From assembly GCA_965214095.1 (NCBI GenBank), contig OZ243938.1, positions 2,784,001-2,848,000 on the forward strand: a DNA stretch of 64,000 bases, written 5' to 3'. Shown one piece after another: positions 9,687 to 29,002 of the stretch. The stretch is from Candidatus Poribacteria bacterium. GTDB taxonomy: Bacteria > Poribacteria > WGA-4E > WGA-3G. Numbering within the stretch: the stretch's first letter is position 1; every line of letters begins with the position of its first letter. The position numbers and the translations under genes are program-made. The notes beneath the pieces are model-generated. The model made no database searches. It was not told the origin of the DNA and saw only the letters and a program-made list of their open reading frames with translations.

Positions 9687-9772
9687 TGGGCGAGGAGGGA
9701 CTTGAACCCTCACGAGGCATAACCCCAATAGATCCTAAGTCTATCCTGTCTACCAAATTCCAGCACCCGCCC
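9687..9772 (-). tRNA. tRNA-Leu(TAG)
   Basis: GGGCGGG...CTCGCCC-A acceptor stem, CT-TAG-GA anticodon loop, long variable arm, GGTTCAAGTCC T-arm; CCA not encoded. Confidence 0.92.
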
Positions 9773-9852
9773 TTTATCTGACACTCAAAGTAAAGTAGTC
9801 CATCTCTATAGAAAGTTTACCATACGTGCATCTGTTCGTTAGATAGAACGGA

Positions 9853-9925
9853 TGCGCCGTAAAGGAATCGAACCTTCAACCCTCTGATTAAGAGTCAGAT
9901 GCTCTGCCAATTGAGCTAACGGCGC
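9853..9925 (-). tRNA. tRNA-Lys(CTT)
   Basis: GCGCCGTTAGCTCAATTGGCAGAGC, GACT-CTT-AATC, GGTTCGATTCC. Confidence 0.93.
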
Positions 9926-9926
9926 C

Positions 9927-9999
9927 CGCGTCCGGAGGGACTCGAACCCCCAACTTATAGCTCCGAAGGCTATTGCTCTATCCATTGAACTACGGACGC
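9927..9999 (-). tRNA. tRNA-Arg(TCG)
   Basis: GCGTCCGTAGTTCAATGGATAGAGC, GCCT-TCG-GAGC, GGTTCGAGTCC. Confidence 0.92.
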
Positions 10000-10007
10000 A
10001 TCTAAAA

Positions 10008-10080
10008 GGTGGATGATGGGGATTGAACCCACGGCCTCCTGATCCACAGTCAGGCGCTCTACCCCTGAGCTACATCCACC
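10008..10080 (-). tRNA. tRNA-His(GTG)
   Basis: G-1 plus GTGGATG...CATCCAC-C, GACT-GTG-GATC. Confidence 0.93.
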
Positions 10081-10090
10081 ACGTTCAATA

Positions 10091-10164
10091 CACGCCTAGC
10101 AGGACTCGAACCTGCAACCCACAGCTTAGAAGGCTGTTGCTCTATCCAATTGAGCTATAGGCGC
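10091..10164 (-). tRNA. tRNA-Arg(TCT)
   Basis: GCGCCTATAGCTCAATTGGATAGAGC, GCCT-TCT-AAGC, GGTTCGAGTCC. Confidence 0.93.
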
Positions 10165-10173
10165 ATGTGGAAA

Positions 10174-10248
10174 TCGGGGTGAGAGGATTCGAACCTCCGA
10201 CCTTCTGCTCCCAAAGCAGACGCGCTAGCCGGGCTGCGCTACACCCCG
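10174..10248 (-). tRNA. tRNA-Pro(TGG)
   Basis: CGGGGTG...CACCCCG-A, GCTT-TGG-GAGC, GGTTCGAATCC. Confidence 0.93.
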
Positions 10249-23420: not shown

Positions 23421-23654
23421 ATGGAGAATCAGCCAACACCTTCTGCTTTGCAACAAGCGGAACAAATCGTATCAGAATTTGGCATTGATGGTGCAATCCT
23501 GTATGATCATAAACCTGTTTTAAGGATACAAGTCCCCGACTCTGTTTTTACGGATGTACTCAATCTCCGAACCGAACTCGTTGAGAAACTAAAGCCTACC
23601 GGTTTTCGTTTCATTGCCCTCGACCTTGACGGCAATCATACCATCTCTAATTAA
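23421..23654 (+). CDS. Small protein resembling the C-terminal domain of LarE
   Basis: ATG 23421 directly follows the SDR stop; 'LRIQVP...LRTELVEKLKPTGFRFIALDLDG'. Confidence 0.55.
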   Translation: MENQPTPSALQQAEQIVSEFGIDGAILYDHKPVLRIQVPDSVFTDVLNLRTELVEKLKPTGFRFIALDLDGNHTISN

Positions 23655-23705
23655 AACATACCATTAAAGAAATAGTTGGTTCGAATGTCTTATGCACATT
23701 TGCCA

Positions 23706-24004
23706 AACACAATAATGCGCCTCGGACATTCATAGTAGTAGGCATACTCCGTATGCCGTTATTATACCATTTCTAATAGATAAGGTATCATTGGGAATTT
23801 GTAGATTTATCCTCAATTTGCTGAATATAAGAGGCGCAATGAATTGCGCGACTACGAGCGTCTGTTTTGATAATGAGTAGTTTTTATTTAGAAGTGGTAT
23901 TACAACGTTGTCGTCGCGCAACACAATACTGCGCCTCGGACATTCTCAATCTAAATTAGAATTTATACTCTCATAATGAGATATTCTCTATTAGAATTGG
24001 TATA
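23706..24004. repeat. Repeat cluster: 26-bp direct repeats, two REPs and TATACCA(T/A)TTCTAA-type MITE ends
   Basis: AACACAATA(A/C)TGCGCCTCGGACATTC at 23706 and 23920; REPs at 23734-23760 and ~23832-23855; TATACCATTTCTAA (23763) inverted against TTAGAAGTGGTAT (~23889) and TTAGAATTGGTATA (23991-24004). Confidence 0.7.
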
Positions 24005-24013
24005 ACATTCACG

Positions 24014-24048
24014 AAAAAGAAGGTAGCGATCCGGAGACCGCTACCTTC
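24014..24048 (-). terminator. Intrinsic terminator of the candidate sRNA
   Basis: GAAGGTAGCGGTC-TCCG-GATCGCTACCTTC-TTTTT: 13-bp stem including one G-U, C(UCCG)G tetraloop, U-tract. Confidence 0.85.
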
Positions 24049-24227
24049 ATAAATCGCGATTTGGATAACGCGCCTGCCCAAATCGCGATTTGGTGAGCAC
24101 GCCCTTAGGGGAGAGGGACGGGCGTACTCACGACTGTTAGGCACATGATATGCCTAAGTCCTTACATCTTTTTCTATTGAATACTTTCAAAAAACAGCGA
24201 AATCAAACTGAAGACACGTTAATTTCC
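24014..24227 (-). ncRNA. Candidate sigma-54-dependent small RNA (~214 nt)
   Basis: Bounded by a -24/-12 promoter and a terminator; four consecutive hairpins; G-U wobbles form only on the minus strand; no meaningful ORF. Confidence 0.7.
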
Positions 24228-24237
24228 GATACTATTG

Positions 24238-24253
24238 AGCAAGTTTCATGCCA
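24238..24253 (-). promoter_or_regulatory. sigma-54 (RpoN) -24/-12 promoter
   Basis: TGGCATGAAACTTGCT against consensus TGGCAC-N5-TTGCW; exact GG/GC spacing; predicted +1 at G 24227. Confidence 0.8.
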
Positions 24254-24441
24254 TATATCCAATTTTTTACCGATTATGGCAGCAAAAACATAAAGACAAG
24301 AAAATGTCGCAAATCTTATATACGTTGTAAACAGTGATTTACACTGGATTTATAGGCATCACCTTTTTTATGAAAGTTTTTAAAAAAGAATTTTGATTTT
24401 TTAAAATTACATATTGTAGACTAACTCTAAATTAGTCGTGT

Positions 24442-24499
24442 ACGCAAAAAATGCATGGCGATTCATGCAAATATTGCGTTGCTCATGCAAAAAATGCGT
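24442..24499. promoter_or_regulatory. Three palindromic candidate enhancer (UAS) sites
   Basis: ACGCA-AAAAA-TGCAT, ATGCA-AATAT-TGCGT, ATGCA-AAAAA-TGCGT, spaced 23 and 20 bp. Confidence 0.65.
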
Positions 24500-24757
24500 C
24501 CTCAAAATGTGTCGGAATTCGCCTGTTTCAATCTGAAAAAACATTGTTTGAATCACAAAATTTTCACATCAAGTCAACTAAATGTTTCTAATTACGTTTA
24601 TGGAATTGATAAGACAATGTGCTGCATTTTATTGCCTACAATGCAAGAATGATTTGAGTATGGTAATGACGCATCATACATCCATCAGCATTGGGAAAAT
24701 GAAATTGCATTAACTTAAATAGACTTCGTCCAGAATAATATACTTAAGGAGCACATT

Positions 24758-25849
24758 ATGAACAAACAACCCGCATTCATCGAATTACCCTCTGCACCCA
24801 TGCAGACGATCTATCAGAAAATCAAGCAGGTTGTGAATTCTAATATCCCTTTTTTAATTACTGGAGAAACAGGAGTTGGTAAGGAAGGAATAGCAAAGTA
24901 TATACACGAAAATAGTTCACGACGAGACAAACCGTTTGTCGCGATAAACTGTGGAAGGTTCTCTGCTGAGCTTCTCCAAAGTGAACTTTTTGGGCATGAG
25001 GAAGGAGCATTTACCAGTGCAATCCGAAAACGGCAAGGTGCATTTGAACAAGCGAATGGTGGGATACTCTTTTTAGATGAAATCCCCGAAATGTCTTTTG
25101 ATGCACAAAAGATGCTACTCCGGGTTTTAGACACAACGACATTTACAAGACTCGGTGGAAATCATACCCTATCAGTAGATGTGCATATACTCACTGCGAC
25201 CAACAAGAATATTGAAAAAGTTGTTGAGGAACAACAATTCCGGAAGGACCTTTACTATCGCCTCAAAGGGTTGACCCTCTATCTACCGCCTTTACGGCAA
25301 CGAACAGAGGATATCGCACCATTGGTAGATGCTTTCATTCGTGAATTCAGTGCTGAATATGGTAAGGAGGTAATCGGAATTAGTCCAGAAGCACTGAATC
25401 ACCTTGAGCAAGCGGCGTGGCCCGGTAATATCCGGCAGTTGAGAAGCACTATACAAACCGCTATGGCTCTCACAACATCAGATACTCTTGAACCAAAAGA
25501 TTTCCCAAACATCTATCCTGAGTTCCTTCAAACGCTCATCTCAGTATGGGGGGCACTCCCAGCACAAACACAACAAGCAATATGGGAAGCACTCCATCCG
25601 GAAACACAACATATTATAATGCATGAATTCTCAACACAGATGCCACAACCGTGGTACAGTATGAGAAATTCAACTGATGCAGATGATGAAGTGTTAAATA
25701 TCGCTGACATGGAGCAAAATGAAATACTACGGGATGTCGCTCAAATGCGGATAGAAAAATATTCATCACTCCGAGAGGCAGCTGATTCGTTGGGTATTGA
25801 TATCAGAACCCTTCAACGGCACGCACAATGGAATAATGGAGACGATTAA
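24758..25849 (+). CDS. Sigma-54-dependent enhancer-binding protein lacking an N-terminal sensor domain
   Basis: GETGVGKE, SELFGHEEGAFTSA, LFLDEI, FRKDLYYRL, WPGNIRQL, C-terminal HTH SLREAADSLGIDIRTLQRH; AAGGAG RBS. Confidence 0.9.
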   Translation: MNKQPAFIELPSAPMQTIYQKIKQVVNSNIPFLITGETGVGKEGIAKYIHENSSRRDKPFVAINCGRFSAELLQSELFGHEEGAFTSAIRKRQGAFEQANGGILFLDEIPEMSFDAQKMLLRVLDTTTFTRLGGNHTLSVDVHILTATNKNIEKVVEEQQFRKDLYYRLKGLTLYLPPLRQRTEDIAPLVDAFIREFSAEYGKEVIGISPEALNHLEQAAWPGNIRQLRSTIQTAMALTTSDTLEPKDFPNIYPEFLQTLISVWGALPAQTQQAIWEALHPETQHIIMHEFSTQMPQPWYSMRNSTDADDEVLNIADMEQNEILRDVAQMRIEKYSSLREAADSLGIDIRTLQRHAQWNNGDD

Positions 25850-25968: not shown

Positions 25969-26071
25969 TATAGTAGATTTTGAAATTACTTGAACACTCT
26001 GCATCGGCGAGGTTAGGAAACCTCGCCTACCGTGGGTCGAAAGTGTCAACTTATATTTATAATTCACTATA
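25969..26071. mobile_element. TATAGT-ended MITE carrying one REP
   Basis: TATAGTAGA...TTCACTATA ends; internal GGCGAGGTTAGGAAACCTCGCCTAC. Confidence 0.7.
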
Positions 26072-26142
26072 ACACTTTTTTCTTGTGGATTCATTGGAAA
26101 TGTGCTACACTTACCAAAGATTCAAAACAGGAGGTGATGCAA

Positions 26143-27453
26143 ATGCTTCAACCAAAACCCCCACGCGCATTTCATGTGATGACAAAGCCAATCGGTCCAA
26201 TCTGCAATTTAGATTGCGAATACTGCTTCTACTTGGAAAAAGAAGAACTCTATCCAGAAACTCGTTCATTTAGAATGGGGGACGAGACTTTGGAAAATTA
26301 CGTCAAACAATATATAGAAGCACAACAGGTTAACGAAGTTACTTTTGCATGGCAAGGTGGCGAACCCACTTTGATGGGTATAGATTTTTTCAAGCAAGCA
26401 GTCCGATATCAGCAGAGATATAGACGCACGGGCATGACTATCCAGAACACATTCCAGACCAATGCAACACTACTTGACGATGAATGGGGTCAATTCTTCA
26501 AACGGAACAAGTTCCTAATCGGAATCAGTATTGACGGACCACCTGAAATTCACGACAAATACCGCTATGACAAACGCGGTCGTCCATCATCTGATCAGGT
26601 AATAAGCGGGTTGCGGATTTTACAAAACCATAGAGTTGATTATAATATACTTTGTGTTGTCAATAATCATAATGCTGAGTACCCGAAGGAAGTGTACGCC
26701 TATTTCAAAGAACTCGGTGCGGAGTTCATGCAGTTTATCCCTGCTGTTGAACATTTTGATGGTGAAAATGTGTCCCCGCGATCTGTCACAGCAAAGCAGT
26801 ATGGCAAATTCCTAACCGCGATTTTTGATGAGTGGGTCGTCAGTGACATCGGAAAAATCTTTGTGCAGATATTTGATGTAGCGTTAGAAGCGTGGATGGG
26901 GTATAATCCGAGCCTTTGTGTGTTCAATGAAACTTGTGGGGATGCAATGGCGATTGAACATAATGGCGATCTCTACTCATGTGACCATTACGTTGATCCT
27001 GAATACCTCATCGGAAACATAGAAGAAACATCATTAGCAGATCTTGTGGATTCACCGTTCCAACGCAAGTTTGGCACTGATAAGAAGGATACACTACCGG
27101 AATACTGTCGTAATTGCGAAGTGAAGTTCGTATGCAATGGTGGTTGTCCGAAAAACCGAATCATCAAAACACCCGATGGAGAAGATGGGTTGAACTACCT
27201 CTGTGATGGTTATAAGCACTTTTTCAATCATATTGATGAACCGATGAAACTCATGGCTTCCGCACTAAAGATGGGAAAACCTGCCAATAGTATCATACCA
27301 ATGATACGTGAGAAACAGAATCCAAAGTCTAAACGCAGTATCACGAGGACACAACCTGCTGGCACATCCTCACAGAAAATTGGACGAAATTCACCGTGTC
27401 CATGTGGAAGTGGACGTAAATATAAACAGTGCTGTTTAGGAAAGGACACATAA
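26143..27453 (+). CDS. Anaerobic sulfatase-maturating radical SAM enzyme with C-terminal SEC-C motif
   Basis: CNLDCEYC, WQGGEP, SPASM cysteines, GRNSPCPCGSGRKYKQCC; GGAGGTG RBS before ATG 26143. Confidence 0.92.
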   Translation: MLQPKPPRAFHVMTKPIGPICNLDCEYCFYLEKEELYPETRSFRMGDETLENYVKQYIEAQQVNEVTFAWQGGEPTLMGIDFFKQAVRYQQRYRRTGMTIQNTFQTNATLLDDEWGQFFKRNKFLIGISIDGPPEIHDKYRYDKRGRPSSDQVISGLRILQNHRVDYNILCVVNNHNAEYPKEVYAYFKELGAEFMQFIPAVEHFDGENVSPRSVTAKQYGKFLTAIFDEWVVSDIGKIFVQIFDVALEAWMGYNPSLCVFNETCGDAMAIEHNGDLYSCDHYVDPEYLIGNIEETSLADLVDSPFQRKFGTDKKDTLPEYCRNCEVKFVCNGGCPKNRIIKTPDGEDGLNYLCDGYKHFFNHIDEPMKLMASALKMGKPANSIIPMIREKQNPKSKRSITRTQPAGTSSQKIGRNSPCPCGSGRKYKQCCLGKDT

Positions 27454-27490
27454 ACCGACACGTATGATGTATGAAATTTAAAGGAAATGT

Positions 27491-29002
27491 ATGGATAAGA
27501 CCAGACCGAATATTTTACTTATCACAAGCGACCAACAACATTGGAACACATTGGGTTGCCTTAACCCTGAGATACAGACACCGCACTTAGATGCATTAGC
27601 ACAAGATGGCACGCTTTTCCAAAGAGCCTATTGTCCAAACCCAACATGCACCCCAACCCGCGCCTCAATCATCACAGGAAAATACCCGAGTCAACACGGT
27701 GCGTGGTCACTCGGCACGAAACTATTGGAAAGTGAACATACTGTCGGTGAAGATTTTACAGATGCTGGTTACCGCACTAGCTTAGTCGGAAAGGCACATT
27801 TCCAACCGTTGCATGGATCAGATGAATTCCCTTCGCTGGAATCCTATCCTATCCTACAAGACTTAGATTTTTGGCGTAATTTCAATGAAACCTTCTACGG
27901 ATTTGAACATGTGGAATTGGCACGTAACCATGCTGATGAAGCACACGTCGGACAGCATTACGCTATATGGATGGAAGAAAACGGATGCACCAATTGGCGT
28001 GATTACTTCGCACCACCGACAGGCAATGCTCGTGGACAATACCACAAATGGCCAATTCCTGAAGAATATCACTACGATACATGGATCGCTGAACGCACGA
28101 ATGCACTGATGGAAGAATATCAACAGAACGATGAGAACTTTTTCCTATGGGCAAGTTTCTTTGATCCACATCCGAAATATCTCGTGCCAGAACCTTGGGA
28201 TACGATGTATGACCCAGCATCGTTGACGGTGCCTTCCGTTACAGAAGGAGAGCATGACAAAAATCCACCTCACTTTCAAATGACACAACAACAGAAACCG
28301 GATTTCTCCGCGTGGCGTGAGACAGGGAAAGGGGTTCACGGATTCAGATCACATCTAAGGGATCGGGATGCACTCGCAGCAGATATTGCTGTCTATTACG
28401 GTATGGTTAGCCTGATGGATAAGTATATCGGCAAAATCATGGGTAAACTTGACGAACTTGGTCTTGCAGATAATACTTTGGTTGTATTTACCTCTGATCA
28501 TGGACATTTTTACGGACAGCACGGTCTGATTGCTAAGGGCGCGTTCCATTATGAAGATGTTATCAAAGTGCCGTTTATCGTGCGATATCCGGGAGTTGTG
28601 CCAGCAGGAGAACAATCTGATGCGTTGCAAACTTTAGTAGACTTAGCACCTTCGTTCCTGAGTGCTGCGGGGATTGACATACCGCTTCCGATGACAGGTG
28701 TGGATCAGACTGCTGTTTGGTATGGTCAAGAGGAACAAGCGCGTGACCATATCATCGTTGAAAATCATCACGAACCTACGACGGTTCACGTTAAGACTTA
28801 TGTCAATGACCGATATAAGCTTACCGTCTATTACAACCGCGAATATGGTGAGTTGTTTGACATGCAAGAGGATCCGGGAGAGATTAACAATCTCTGGAAC
28901 TCAACTGAACACGCCGATTTGAAGGCAGATTTGGTGATGAAACTGCTGTTTGCGGAAATGGGTAAAGAAGTGCTGCCAATGCCACGTACATCTGGGGCAT
29001 AA
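27491..29002 (+). CDS. Cys-type sulfatase
   Basis: PNILLITSDQ, CTPTRASIITG, GKAH, FTSDHG, ELFD..EDP.E. Confidence 0.93.
   Translation: MDKTRPNILLITSDQQHWNTLGCLNPEIQTPHLDALAQDGTLFQRAYCPNPTCTPTRASIITGKYPSQHGAWSLGTKLLESEHTVGEDFTDAGYRTSLVGKAHFQPLHGSDEFPSLESYPILQDLDFWRNFNETFYGFEHVELARNHADEAHVGQHYAIWMEENGCTNWRDYFAPPTGNARGQYHKWPIPEEYHYDTWIAERTNALMEEYQQNDENFFLWASFFDPHPKYLVPEPWDTMYDPASLTVPSVTEGEHDKNPPHFQMTQQQKPDFSAWRETGKGVHGFRSHLRDRDALAADIAVYYGMVSLMDKYIGKIMGKLDELGLADNTLVVFTSDHGHFYGQHGLIAKGAFHYEDVIKVPFIVRYPGVVPAGEQSDALQTLVDLAPSFLSAAGIDIPLPMTGVDQTAVWYGQEEQARDHIIVENHHEPTTVHVKTYVNDRYKLTVYYNREYGELFDMQEDPGEINNLWNSTEHADLKADLVMKLLFAEMGKEVLPMPRTSGA

Follow-up and report, generated by a model that had tools for sequence, protein, structure and literature searches.

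In the LuxO/Qrr circuit of Vibrio, a small RNA (sRNA) that ends in a terminator is transcribed from a sigma-54 promoter, next to the gene for its AAA+ activator and in the divergent direction, and is that activator's main output. GlrR/GlmY, CbrB/CrcZ, and NtrC/NrsZ of Gammaproteobacteria follow a similar plan, with an enhancer-binding protein and sigma-54 driving a non-coding RNA that is often encoded beside the activator gene. To our knowledge, control of small RNAs by such an activator and sigma-54 has been described in Proteobacteria only. Here we analyze a locus of comparable layout in a Candidatus Poribacteria bacterium, a member of an uncultured group that lives with sponges, found at positions 24014 to 25849 of a 64,000-nucleotide (nt) stretch of contig OZ243938.1 (assembly GCA_965214095.1, positions 2,784,001 to 2,848,000; this whole stretch is called the window), where a predicted non-coding RNA lies divergent from the gene for a sigma-54 activator. 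The host genome has a 5.2-Mb chromosome with 41% G+C and an assembly that is 94% complete, and DNA of the stretch was found in four sequencing runs, all from one study.

The likeness to luxO/qrr drawn in the original prediction extends to the layout but not to the components. LuxO is a response regulator whose receiver domain has no counterpart in the Poribacteria activator, and Qrr and the RNA found here are unrelated. The AAA+ domain of LuxO does count among the activator's solved relatives (E ~1e-60), but the activator scored 240 bits with the LuxO NCBIfam model, for which the cutoff is 800. Rfam gave no match between Qrr and the Poribacteria RNA, and Hfq, on which Qrr depends, was not found in the window's genome. 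GlrR, CbrB, and NtrC are also two-component response regulators, in contrast to the receiver-less activator, which fell far below the cutoffs of the GlrR and NtrC NCBIfam models. Their RNAs, GlmY, CrcZ, and NrsZ, act via Hfq, Crc, or RapZ partners, belong to another phylum, and have no sequence or structure match to the Poribacteria RNA.

PspF, the sensor-less enhancer-binding protein of the phage-shock system, has an AAA+ domain followed by a C-terminal helix-turn-helix (HTH) and no N-terminal regulatory domain, a plan that the activator would share if its HTH-like C terminus is indeed an HTH, and it provided the only NCBIfam model to align over nearly the full protein (residues 16 to 339). 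However, scores were below cutoff (231 bits versus 443 and 188 bits versus 529), no psp operon adjoins the gene, and the target here would be an RNA gene; the activator is thus not PspF. On the RNA side, the RsaE/RoxS-type sRNAs of Firmicutes offer a parallel, in that a C-rich loop left exposed could base-pair, with no need for Hfq, to ribosome-binding sites that are G-rich, but these RNAs show no Rfam homology to the Poribacteria RNA and use another type of promoter. No relevant paper on sigma-54 control or on small or regulatory RNAs in Poribacteria appeared in the part of the literature that our search covered.

Taken as a whole, the locus is probably a single-copy gene for a non-coding RNA of ~214 nt, found in one Candidatus Poribacteria genus and transcribed by sigma-54 RNA polymerase under a paired activator, with a loop that most likely pairs with Shine-Dalgarno (SD)-type sites of mRNAs independently of Hfq and lowers their translation. 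In this circuit, a sensor-less AAA+ activator of 363 amino acids, encoded divergently, would bind three GCA-W5-TGC sites ~200 to 245 base pairs (bp) upstream of the promoter, reach over an A/T-rich and probably bent spacer to contact the sigma-54 holoenzyme at TGGCAT-N5-TTGCT, and use ATP to open the promoter, with transcription ending at an intrinsic terminator. The transcript would combine a fast-evolving 5' part with a conserved core of three hairpins, and a 13-nt C/U-rich loop on hairpin 2 would be its working part. We infer both the binding of the activator to these sites and the base-pairing action of the RNA from sequence. The elements of the locus, read from the activator gene toward the terminator, are the following.

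24758-25849, plus strand: sigma-54 activator (bacterial enhancer-binding protein), 363 amino acids, assigned by Pfam Sigma54_activat (PF00158, E 2.7e-65) and AAA_lid_14 (E 7.2e-22)
24572-24757, plus strand: region upstream of the activator gene, including its leader, conserved in an alignment of 18 loci
24497-24487, 24477-24467, and 24454-24444: candidate enhancer made of three GCA-W5-TGC inverted-repeat sites with centers 20 and 23 bp apart, ~200 to 245 bp upstream of the promoter
~24360-24410 and ~24352-24319: A/T-rich tract and conserved block between enhancer and promoter, from the sequence and an alignment of 19 loci
24253-24238, minus strand: putative sigma-54 promoter TGGCATGAAACTTGCT (-24 GG, -12 GC), a near-consensus motif
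24227-24158, minus strand: variable, AU-rich 5' part of the RNA, from comparison of loci
24157-24137, minus strand: hairpin 1, with 8 pairs, 3 of them changed on both sides, and 86% of alignment cells paired
24131-24120 and 24104-24093, minus strand: arms of hairpin 2, a 12-bp stem with its loop at 24119-24105; 99.6% of stem cells paired and 4 pairs changed on both sides
24091-24078 and 24064-24051, minus strand: arms of hairpin 3, a 14-bp stem plus an inner 2-bp helix; 96% of cells paired and 4 pairs changed on both sides
24048-24019, minus strand: stem of the intrinsic terminator, with 13 pairs and a UCCG loop, followed by T5 at 24018-24014, from a terminator scan and the fold

Every element of the original prediction was present at the coordinates it had given. 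These were the promoter at 24253-24238 with its predicted +1 at 24227, four hairpins including a terminator that ends at 24014, the A/T-tract region at ~24360-24410, "three palindromes" that correspond to the GCA-W5-TGC sites between 24497 and 24444, and a divergent enhancer-binding protein, for which Pfam confirmed the open reading frame (ORF) at 24758-25849. Its description of the module as "self-contained" was also fair, because the internal layout stays constant while the flanking genes vary between species.

The predicted RNA (~214 nt, 24227 to 24014, minus strand) begins with a 5' part that varies, continues through three conserved hairpins, and closes with the terminator. A 218-nt stretch folded at -92.4 kcal/mol, compared to -54.5 ± 4.6 kcal/mol for 200 dinucleotide shuffles (z = -8.3), none of which was as good. 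The 5' part varied in length: the promoter and the hairpin block were 69 to 91 nt apart in 12 of 19 loci and 171 to 733 nt apart in the other 7, and the long 5' parts in three genomes (G003, G020, and G062) matched dispersed repeats of the window's genome. In contrast to this variable part, the 13-nt loop GUCCCUCUCCCCU on hairpin 2 (24119 to 24107) was unvarying in 20 of 20 aligned sequences, and we propose it as the functional site of the RNA. Each arm of hairpin 3 is palindromic in the window; relatives break these palindromes yet keep the pairing of arm to arm, which favors a hairpin over two operator sites. The terminator was present in 15 of the 20 aligned relatives, with compensatory changes. 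Four others (G019, G010, G031, and G024) are missing this fourth hairpin and have a U-rich run after hairpin 3, and G008 has a related stem in its place, without a U-run.

A search of the window with the covariance models of Rfam 15 returned only six tRNAs at or above the gathering score, which form a cluster of genes on the minus strand at 9687-10248. The best Rfam matches between 24400 and 23900 scored at most 19.8 bits against cutoffs of 60 to 80. No Rfam family, with Qrr, GlmY/GlmZ, CrcZ, and RsaE among those covered, matched the RNA, in keeping with the original prediction, which had not recognized it as a described family.

Conservation of the hairpin block was assessed by BLAST and by a covariance model built on hairpins 1 to 3 only, from an alignment of 20 copies. 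The block is a single full copy in the window's genome. BLAST recovered it, at 73 to 94% identity, from 19 of the 36 genomes of the same genus that were searched, and 24 genomes belonging to other families of the order gave no match. The covariance model matched 23 of 40 genus genomes at 76 to 130 bits, while the opposite strand at the same places reached at most 39 bits; the matches comprise 24 RNA loci, as one genome (G036) holds two. In a phylum sample of 151 genomes, all 22 matching genomes belonged to this one genus, and 0 of 113 sampled genomes outside it matched, including 0 of 57 from the sister genus. A scan of metagenomes with a 19-nt loop pattern returned 105 stretches; none of the 80 loci that were fetched matched the covariance model, and those stretches are therefore chance or unrelated occurrences.

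Standard base pairs filled 95.2% of 708 alignment cells, and 11 of 36 pairs were changed on both sides, values that come from related species and from a structure derived from those very sequences. For four of five measures, 0 of 500 shuffles reached the observed value (28 of 500 for the fifth), and when pairing partners were slid out of register, pairing fell to 23 to 45%. RNAalifold independently identified 16 pairs with compensatory change, and G-U pairs were common at two stem positions of hairpin 2. The original argument for a strand-specific RNA, which had relied on G-U pairs in the window, was thus borne out by covarying stems, by scores far above those of the reverse strand, and by the frequent G-U pairs of hairpin 2. 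Together, the sequence and this comparison document the structure and strand of the predicted RNA, as they do the putative promoter, the candidate enhancer cluster, and the linkage to the activator described below.

The second locus in G036 (L070, G036:C25:74526-74630) is a diverged copy of the RNA core with compensatory stem changes and the loop GUUCUCUCCCCU, within which CUCUCCCCU is retained. It lies ~55 nt past the stop codon of a 476-amino-acid ORF, with no sigma-54 promoter or activator nearby.

The putative promoter fits the arrangement TGGCAC-N5-TTGCW, with GG at -24 and GC at -12, and, given the C of the -12 GC at 24239, +1 would fall near 24227. TGGCA and TTGCT were unvarying across the alignment of 19 loci. 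A strict promoter motif was found upstream of the RNA block in 19 of the 24 covariance-model loci and in all 18 loci with a visible activator start, at 477 to 619 nt from that start. A sigma-54 promoter calls for rpoN, and the gene is present in the window's genome as a 598-amino-acid open frame with a Sigma54_DBD match of 194 bits. As had been predicted, the ORF list, Pfam, and conservation revealed no real gene downstream of the promoter on the minus strand: a 57-amino-acid ORF is not conserved, a 64-amino-acid ORF (23730-23924) lies inside a high-copy repeat and has near-identical copies elsewhere in the genome, and the next gene past the RNA encodes a short-chain dehydrogenase in convergent orientation.

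Residue 12 of the activator is already the start of its AAA+ sigma-54 interaction domain, so that an N-terminal sensor or receiver domain is absent, and Pfam gave no receiver match. Walker A (GETGVGKE) and Walker B (ILFLDEI) motifs are present. The C terminus looks HTH-like; it has a weak NUMOD1 match at residues 332 to 355 (E 0.0018, below the cutoff of that family), and the PspF model aligns up to residue 339. No NCBIfam equivalog cutoff was reached by the protein, and its nearest solved relatives are the AAA+ domains of NtrC1, FleQ, LuxO, and ZraR. Close relatives with 76 to 87% identity occur in records of Candidatus Poribacteria metagenome-assembled genomes.

This activator and the RNA occur together across the genus. 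Full-length activator orthologues with at least 73% identity were present in 18 of 40 genus genomes, and every one of the 18 also carries the RNA. In the 17 genus genomes that lack the RNA, only paralogues of the activator were present, with 55 to 58% identity where listed and best E values of 1e-77 to 1e-120. Conservation of promoter and hairpins beside orthologous activators, whose absence the original prediction had named among the observations that would refute it, was found at 18 of 18 loci. One of the activator genes (G026) is interrupted by an internal TAA, and an extra, truncated activator copy (L045, OZ244616.1:4235721-4242343; G003:C1:4238828-4239343) covering residues 1 to 172 at 85% identity, with an internal TGA, lies distant from the sRNA locus. 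In the sister genus (L077 to L081), ~70%-identical activators occur as tandem pairs right behind a sigma-54 promoter of their own, TGGCACGAAATTTGCT, which suggests that they are autoactivated.

The candidate enhancer is also unusual within the genome. GCA-W5-TGC occurs at 116 sites in the 5.2-Mb chromosome, and the sole cluster of at least three within 80 bp is the one at this locus. Among 67 strict sigma-54 promoter matches, only the RNA promoter has three sites within 300 nt upstream; one other has a single site, and the rest have none. Because no other sigma-54 promoter match has three such sites, the RNA appears to be the only target of the activator in the genome. A relaxed form of the motif occurs two to three times in 17 of 19 related loci. 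At L078, the one sister-genus locus read beyond the activator operon, two further sigma-54 promoters precede a protein gene and an apparent gene fragment, and the same motif, GCAATTTTTGC, stands upstream of one of these two promoters. Between enhancer and promoter, the alignment of 19 loci revealed a conserved block ~60 to 95 nt upstream of the promoter. A DNA-bending protein may bind at this block and the A/T tract; compared by eye, with no scan made, the A/T tract region showed no clear match to the IHF consensus.

The leader of the activator gene is itself unusually conserved. A hairpin at ~24656 to 24682 has an unvarying loop, AAUGACGC, and formed in 17 of 18 per-sequence folds, with stem letters that differ and covary. 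Other leader segments, also unvarying, are complementary to the activator's own SD sequence and AUG, and RNAalifold paired GGUAAUG with CAUUAUG and CUUC with GGAG. All of these SD- and AUG-masking pairs are unvarying or changed on one side, and none is changed on both. Control may enter through the activator leader as a cis-regulatory element. A bolder version of this idea is a cascade of two RNAs, in which a signal is read by the structured leader, with its segments that can mask the SD sequence and AUG, the activator fires a single sigma-54 promoter, and translation in this sponge symbiont is then broadly affected by an Hfq-independent RNA through its anti-Shine-Dalgarno-like loop. Such a cascade would explain the missing sensor domain of the activator, because the signal would be read at the RNA level by its own mRNA leader, but as a complete scheme we judge it improbable.

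How the RNA acts is suggested by its loop and by the genome around it. Hfq was not found in the genome, which is 94% complete, under conditions in which control genomes gave matches, and CsrA was not found either. SD sequences in this genome are canonical and the 16S tail reads CACCUCCUUUCU, so the CUCUCC/CUCCCC of the loop can pair with GGAG-type sites. The most likely mode of action would thus be Hfq-independent pairing with ribosome-binding regions of mRNAs.

Several observations weigh against the locus being an activator-controlled RNA that pairs with mRNAs. In a duplex-energy scan of ~3,900 crude gene starts, the real loop identified 15 genes at -18 kcal/mol or below, compared to 3 to 10 for six shuffled loops, and the top predicted targets share no theme. 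Complementarity to the loop over 11 nt occurs at one ribosome-binding site only, before a 230-amino-acid protein of unknown role, and a 9-nt loop complement followed by ATG was not enriched (44 sites in 23 genomes with the RNA versus 37 sites in 17 genomes without it). An unvarying 13-nt loop would fit a protein-binding site equally well. On the promoter side, the sigma-54 contact loop of the activator reads GAFTSA, one residue off the consensus GAFTGA of enhancer-binding proteins, and the promoter is missing at 5 of the 24 RNA loci. Three genomes (G008, G016, and G021) carry the RNA with neither activator nor promoter, as does the second copy in G036; G029 shows neither on a contig that stops 437 nt upstream; and G022 keeps the promoter but has only a remnant of the activator (residues 205 to 359) and a replaced enhancer region. 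In view of these loci, the RNA can persist without its activator. No RNA sequencing run was found to contain the stretch, which speaks neither for nor against expression, and we infer transcription of the RNA from sequence.

The explanation closest to the one we favor keeps the same promoter and activator control but has the loop and the long, perfect stems titrate or scaffold an RNA-binding protein, without any pairing to mRNA. A 13-nt loop that stays fixed while the stems drift is typical of contact surfaces for proteins or ribonucleoproteins, and the target scans yielded no specific mRNA. However, the locus has no linked gene for a candidate partner protein, and its flanking genes vary by species; each RNA has one loop, unlike multi-site sponge RNAs such as CsrB and CrcZ; and CsrA and Hfq were not found. 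We consider this explanation unlikely but credible. A feedback of the RNA on its own activator through the conserved mRNA leader, as Qrr acts on luxO mRNA, is very unlikely. The unusual conservation of the leader and its hairpin with the fixed loop AAUGACGC would suit such a role, and in the window's species the hairpin 3 loop GCGUUAU complements AUGACGC. However, most relatives read GCGCUAA at this loop, so that complementarity is lost and the best partner lies inside a stem. The hairpin 2 loop is complementary to the activator ribosome-binding site over only ~4 nt by eye, whole-RNA duplex folds gave uninformative long-range pairings, and folds of the loop against the RNA revealed no conserved single-stranded partner.

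Repeats around the locus raise another alternative, in which the hairpins are DNA-level or repeat-derived elements (similar to repetitive extragenic palindromes, miniature inverted-repeat transposable elements, or a terminator cluster) that do not function as an RNA of their own, and the promoter is a relic. A dispersed high-copy repeat (23719-24008), with up to 137 overlapping BLAST matches in the genome, starts a few bases past the terminator, and in G003, G020, and G062 the 5' part has been expanded by repeat insertions. The hairpin 1 core, TAGGCAY...RTGCC, is found at 74 sites and the terminator apex, GCGRTCTCCGRATCGC, at 19 sites, as members of dispersed hairpin families. Against this stand a block that is single copy, with one model match per genome except for the two in G036; G-U pairs and a large gap in score between strands, both of which favor RNA; and a loop and a promoter that are unvarying, the latter across 19 loci. 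The concern in the original prediction that the hairpins could be high-copy dispersed repeats is thus answered by their copy number, and we regard this alternative as extremely improbable. Closer still to negligible is the idea that the promoter drives a small protein gene overlapping the hairpins. A 57-amino-acid GTG ORF (23971-24144, minus strand) does overlap the block, but it has no Pfam match, none of the frames that cross the loop stays open with a start codon throughout the 23 loci, one genome (G063) has no start in any of the three frames, and insertions and deletions between helices shift the frame. Of these alternatives, the protein-binding explanation is the most credible competitor of the preferred reading, an activator-controlled RNA that pairs with mRNAs.

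A conserved partner gene was also considered and rejected. A protein of 281 to 284 amino acids is encoded after the activator in three of six loci (L039, L040, and L043), but the homologue encoded in the window's genome is unlinked, at a distance of 1.3 Mb (C1:1491233-1492075), with no promoter or complementarity seen there. The protein has an N-terminal hydrophobic segment and belongs to no Pfam family.

Other features of the window and its genome were recorded along with the locus. Neighbors of the activator gene encode a radical SAM/SPASM enzyme, a sulfatase, and a dehydrogenase. The radical SAM/SPASM enzyme, which has a C-terminal SEC-C motif, is followed by the sulfatase at 26032-29002; the two are syntenic in the closest relatives only and look like a sulfatase-maturase pair. 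A smaller repeat is present at 23635-23683. Two dispersed hairpin families occur in the genome (e.g., at C1:313040 and C1:1510577), GTAGTAGGCACRCTCCGYGTGCCGT at ~75 sites and AGGAGCGATCTCCRAATCGCGA at ~15 sites. In their cores they are similar to hairpin 1 and to the apex of the terminator, a hint that parts of the RNA may derive from such elements. A 32-kb contig of the same assembly (C2) has 64% G+C, compared to 41% for the chromosome, and may be foreign DNA or assembly contamination.

The RNA thus appears to be real and to represent a new family inside a known type of circuit, comparable to LuxO/Qrr, and both its status as a gene and the sigma-54 module are well supported. Because this type of circuit was already known, the advance lies in a new family and a new lineage rather than in a new principle. 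The locus would extend control of small RNAs by an activator and sigma-54 beyond Proteobacteria, into a host in which Hfq was not found. As the phylum is uncultured, circuits of Poribacteria can be read only from genomes. The activator, enhancer, sigma-54 promoter, and RNA form a compact, movable set of parts that could be rebuilt in a laboratory host, where they could reveal what controls an activator that lacks a sensor and which role the RNA plays.

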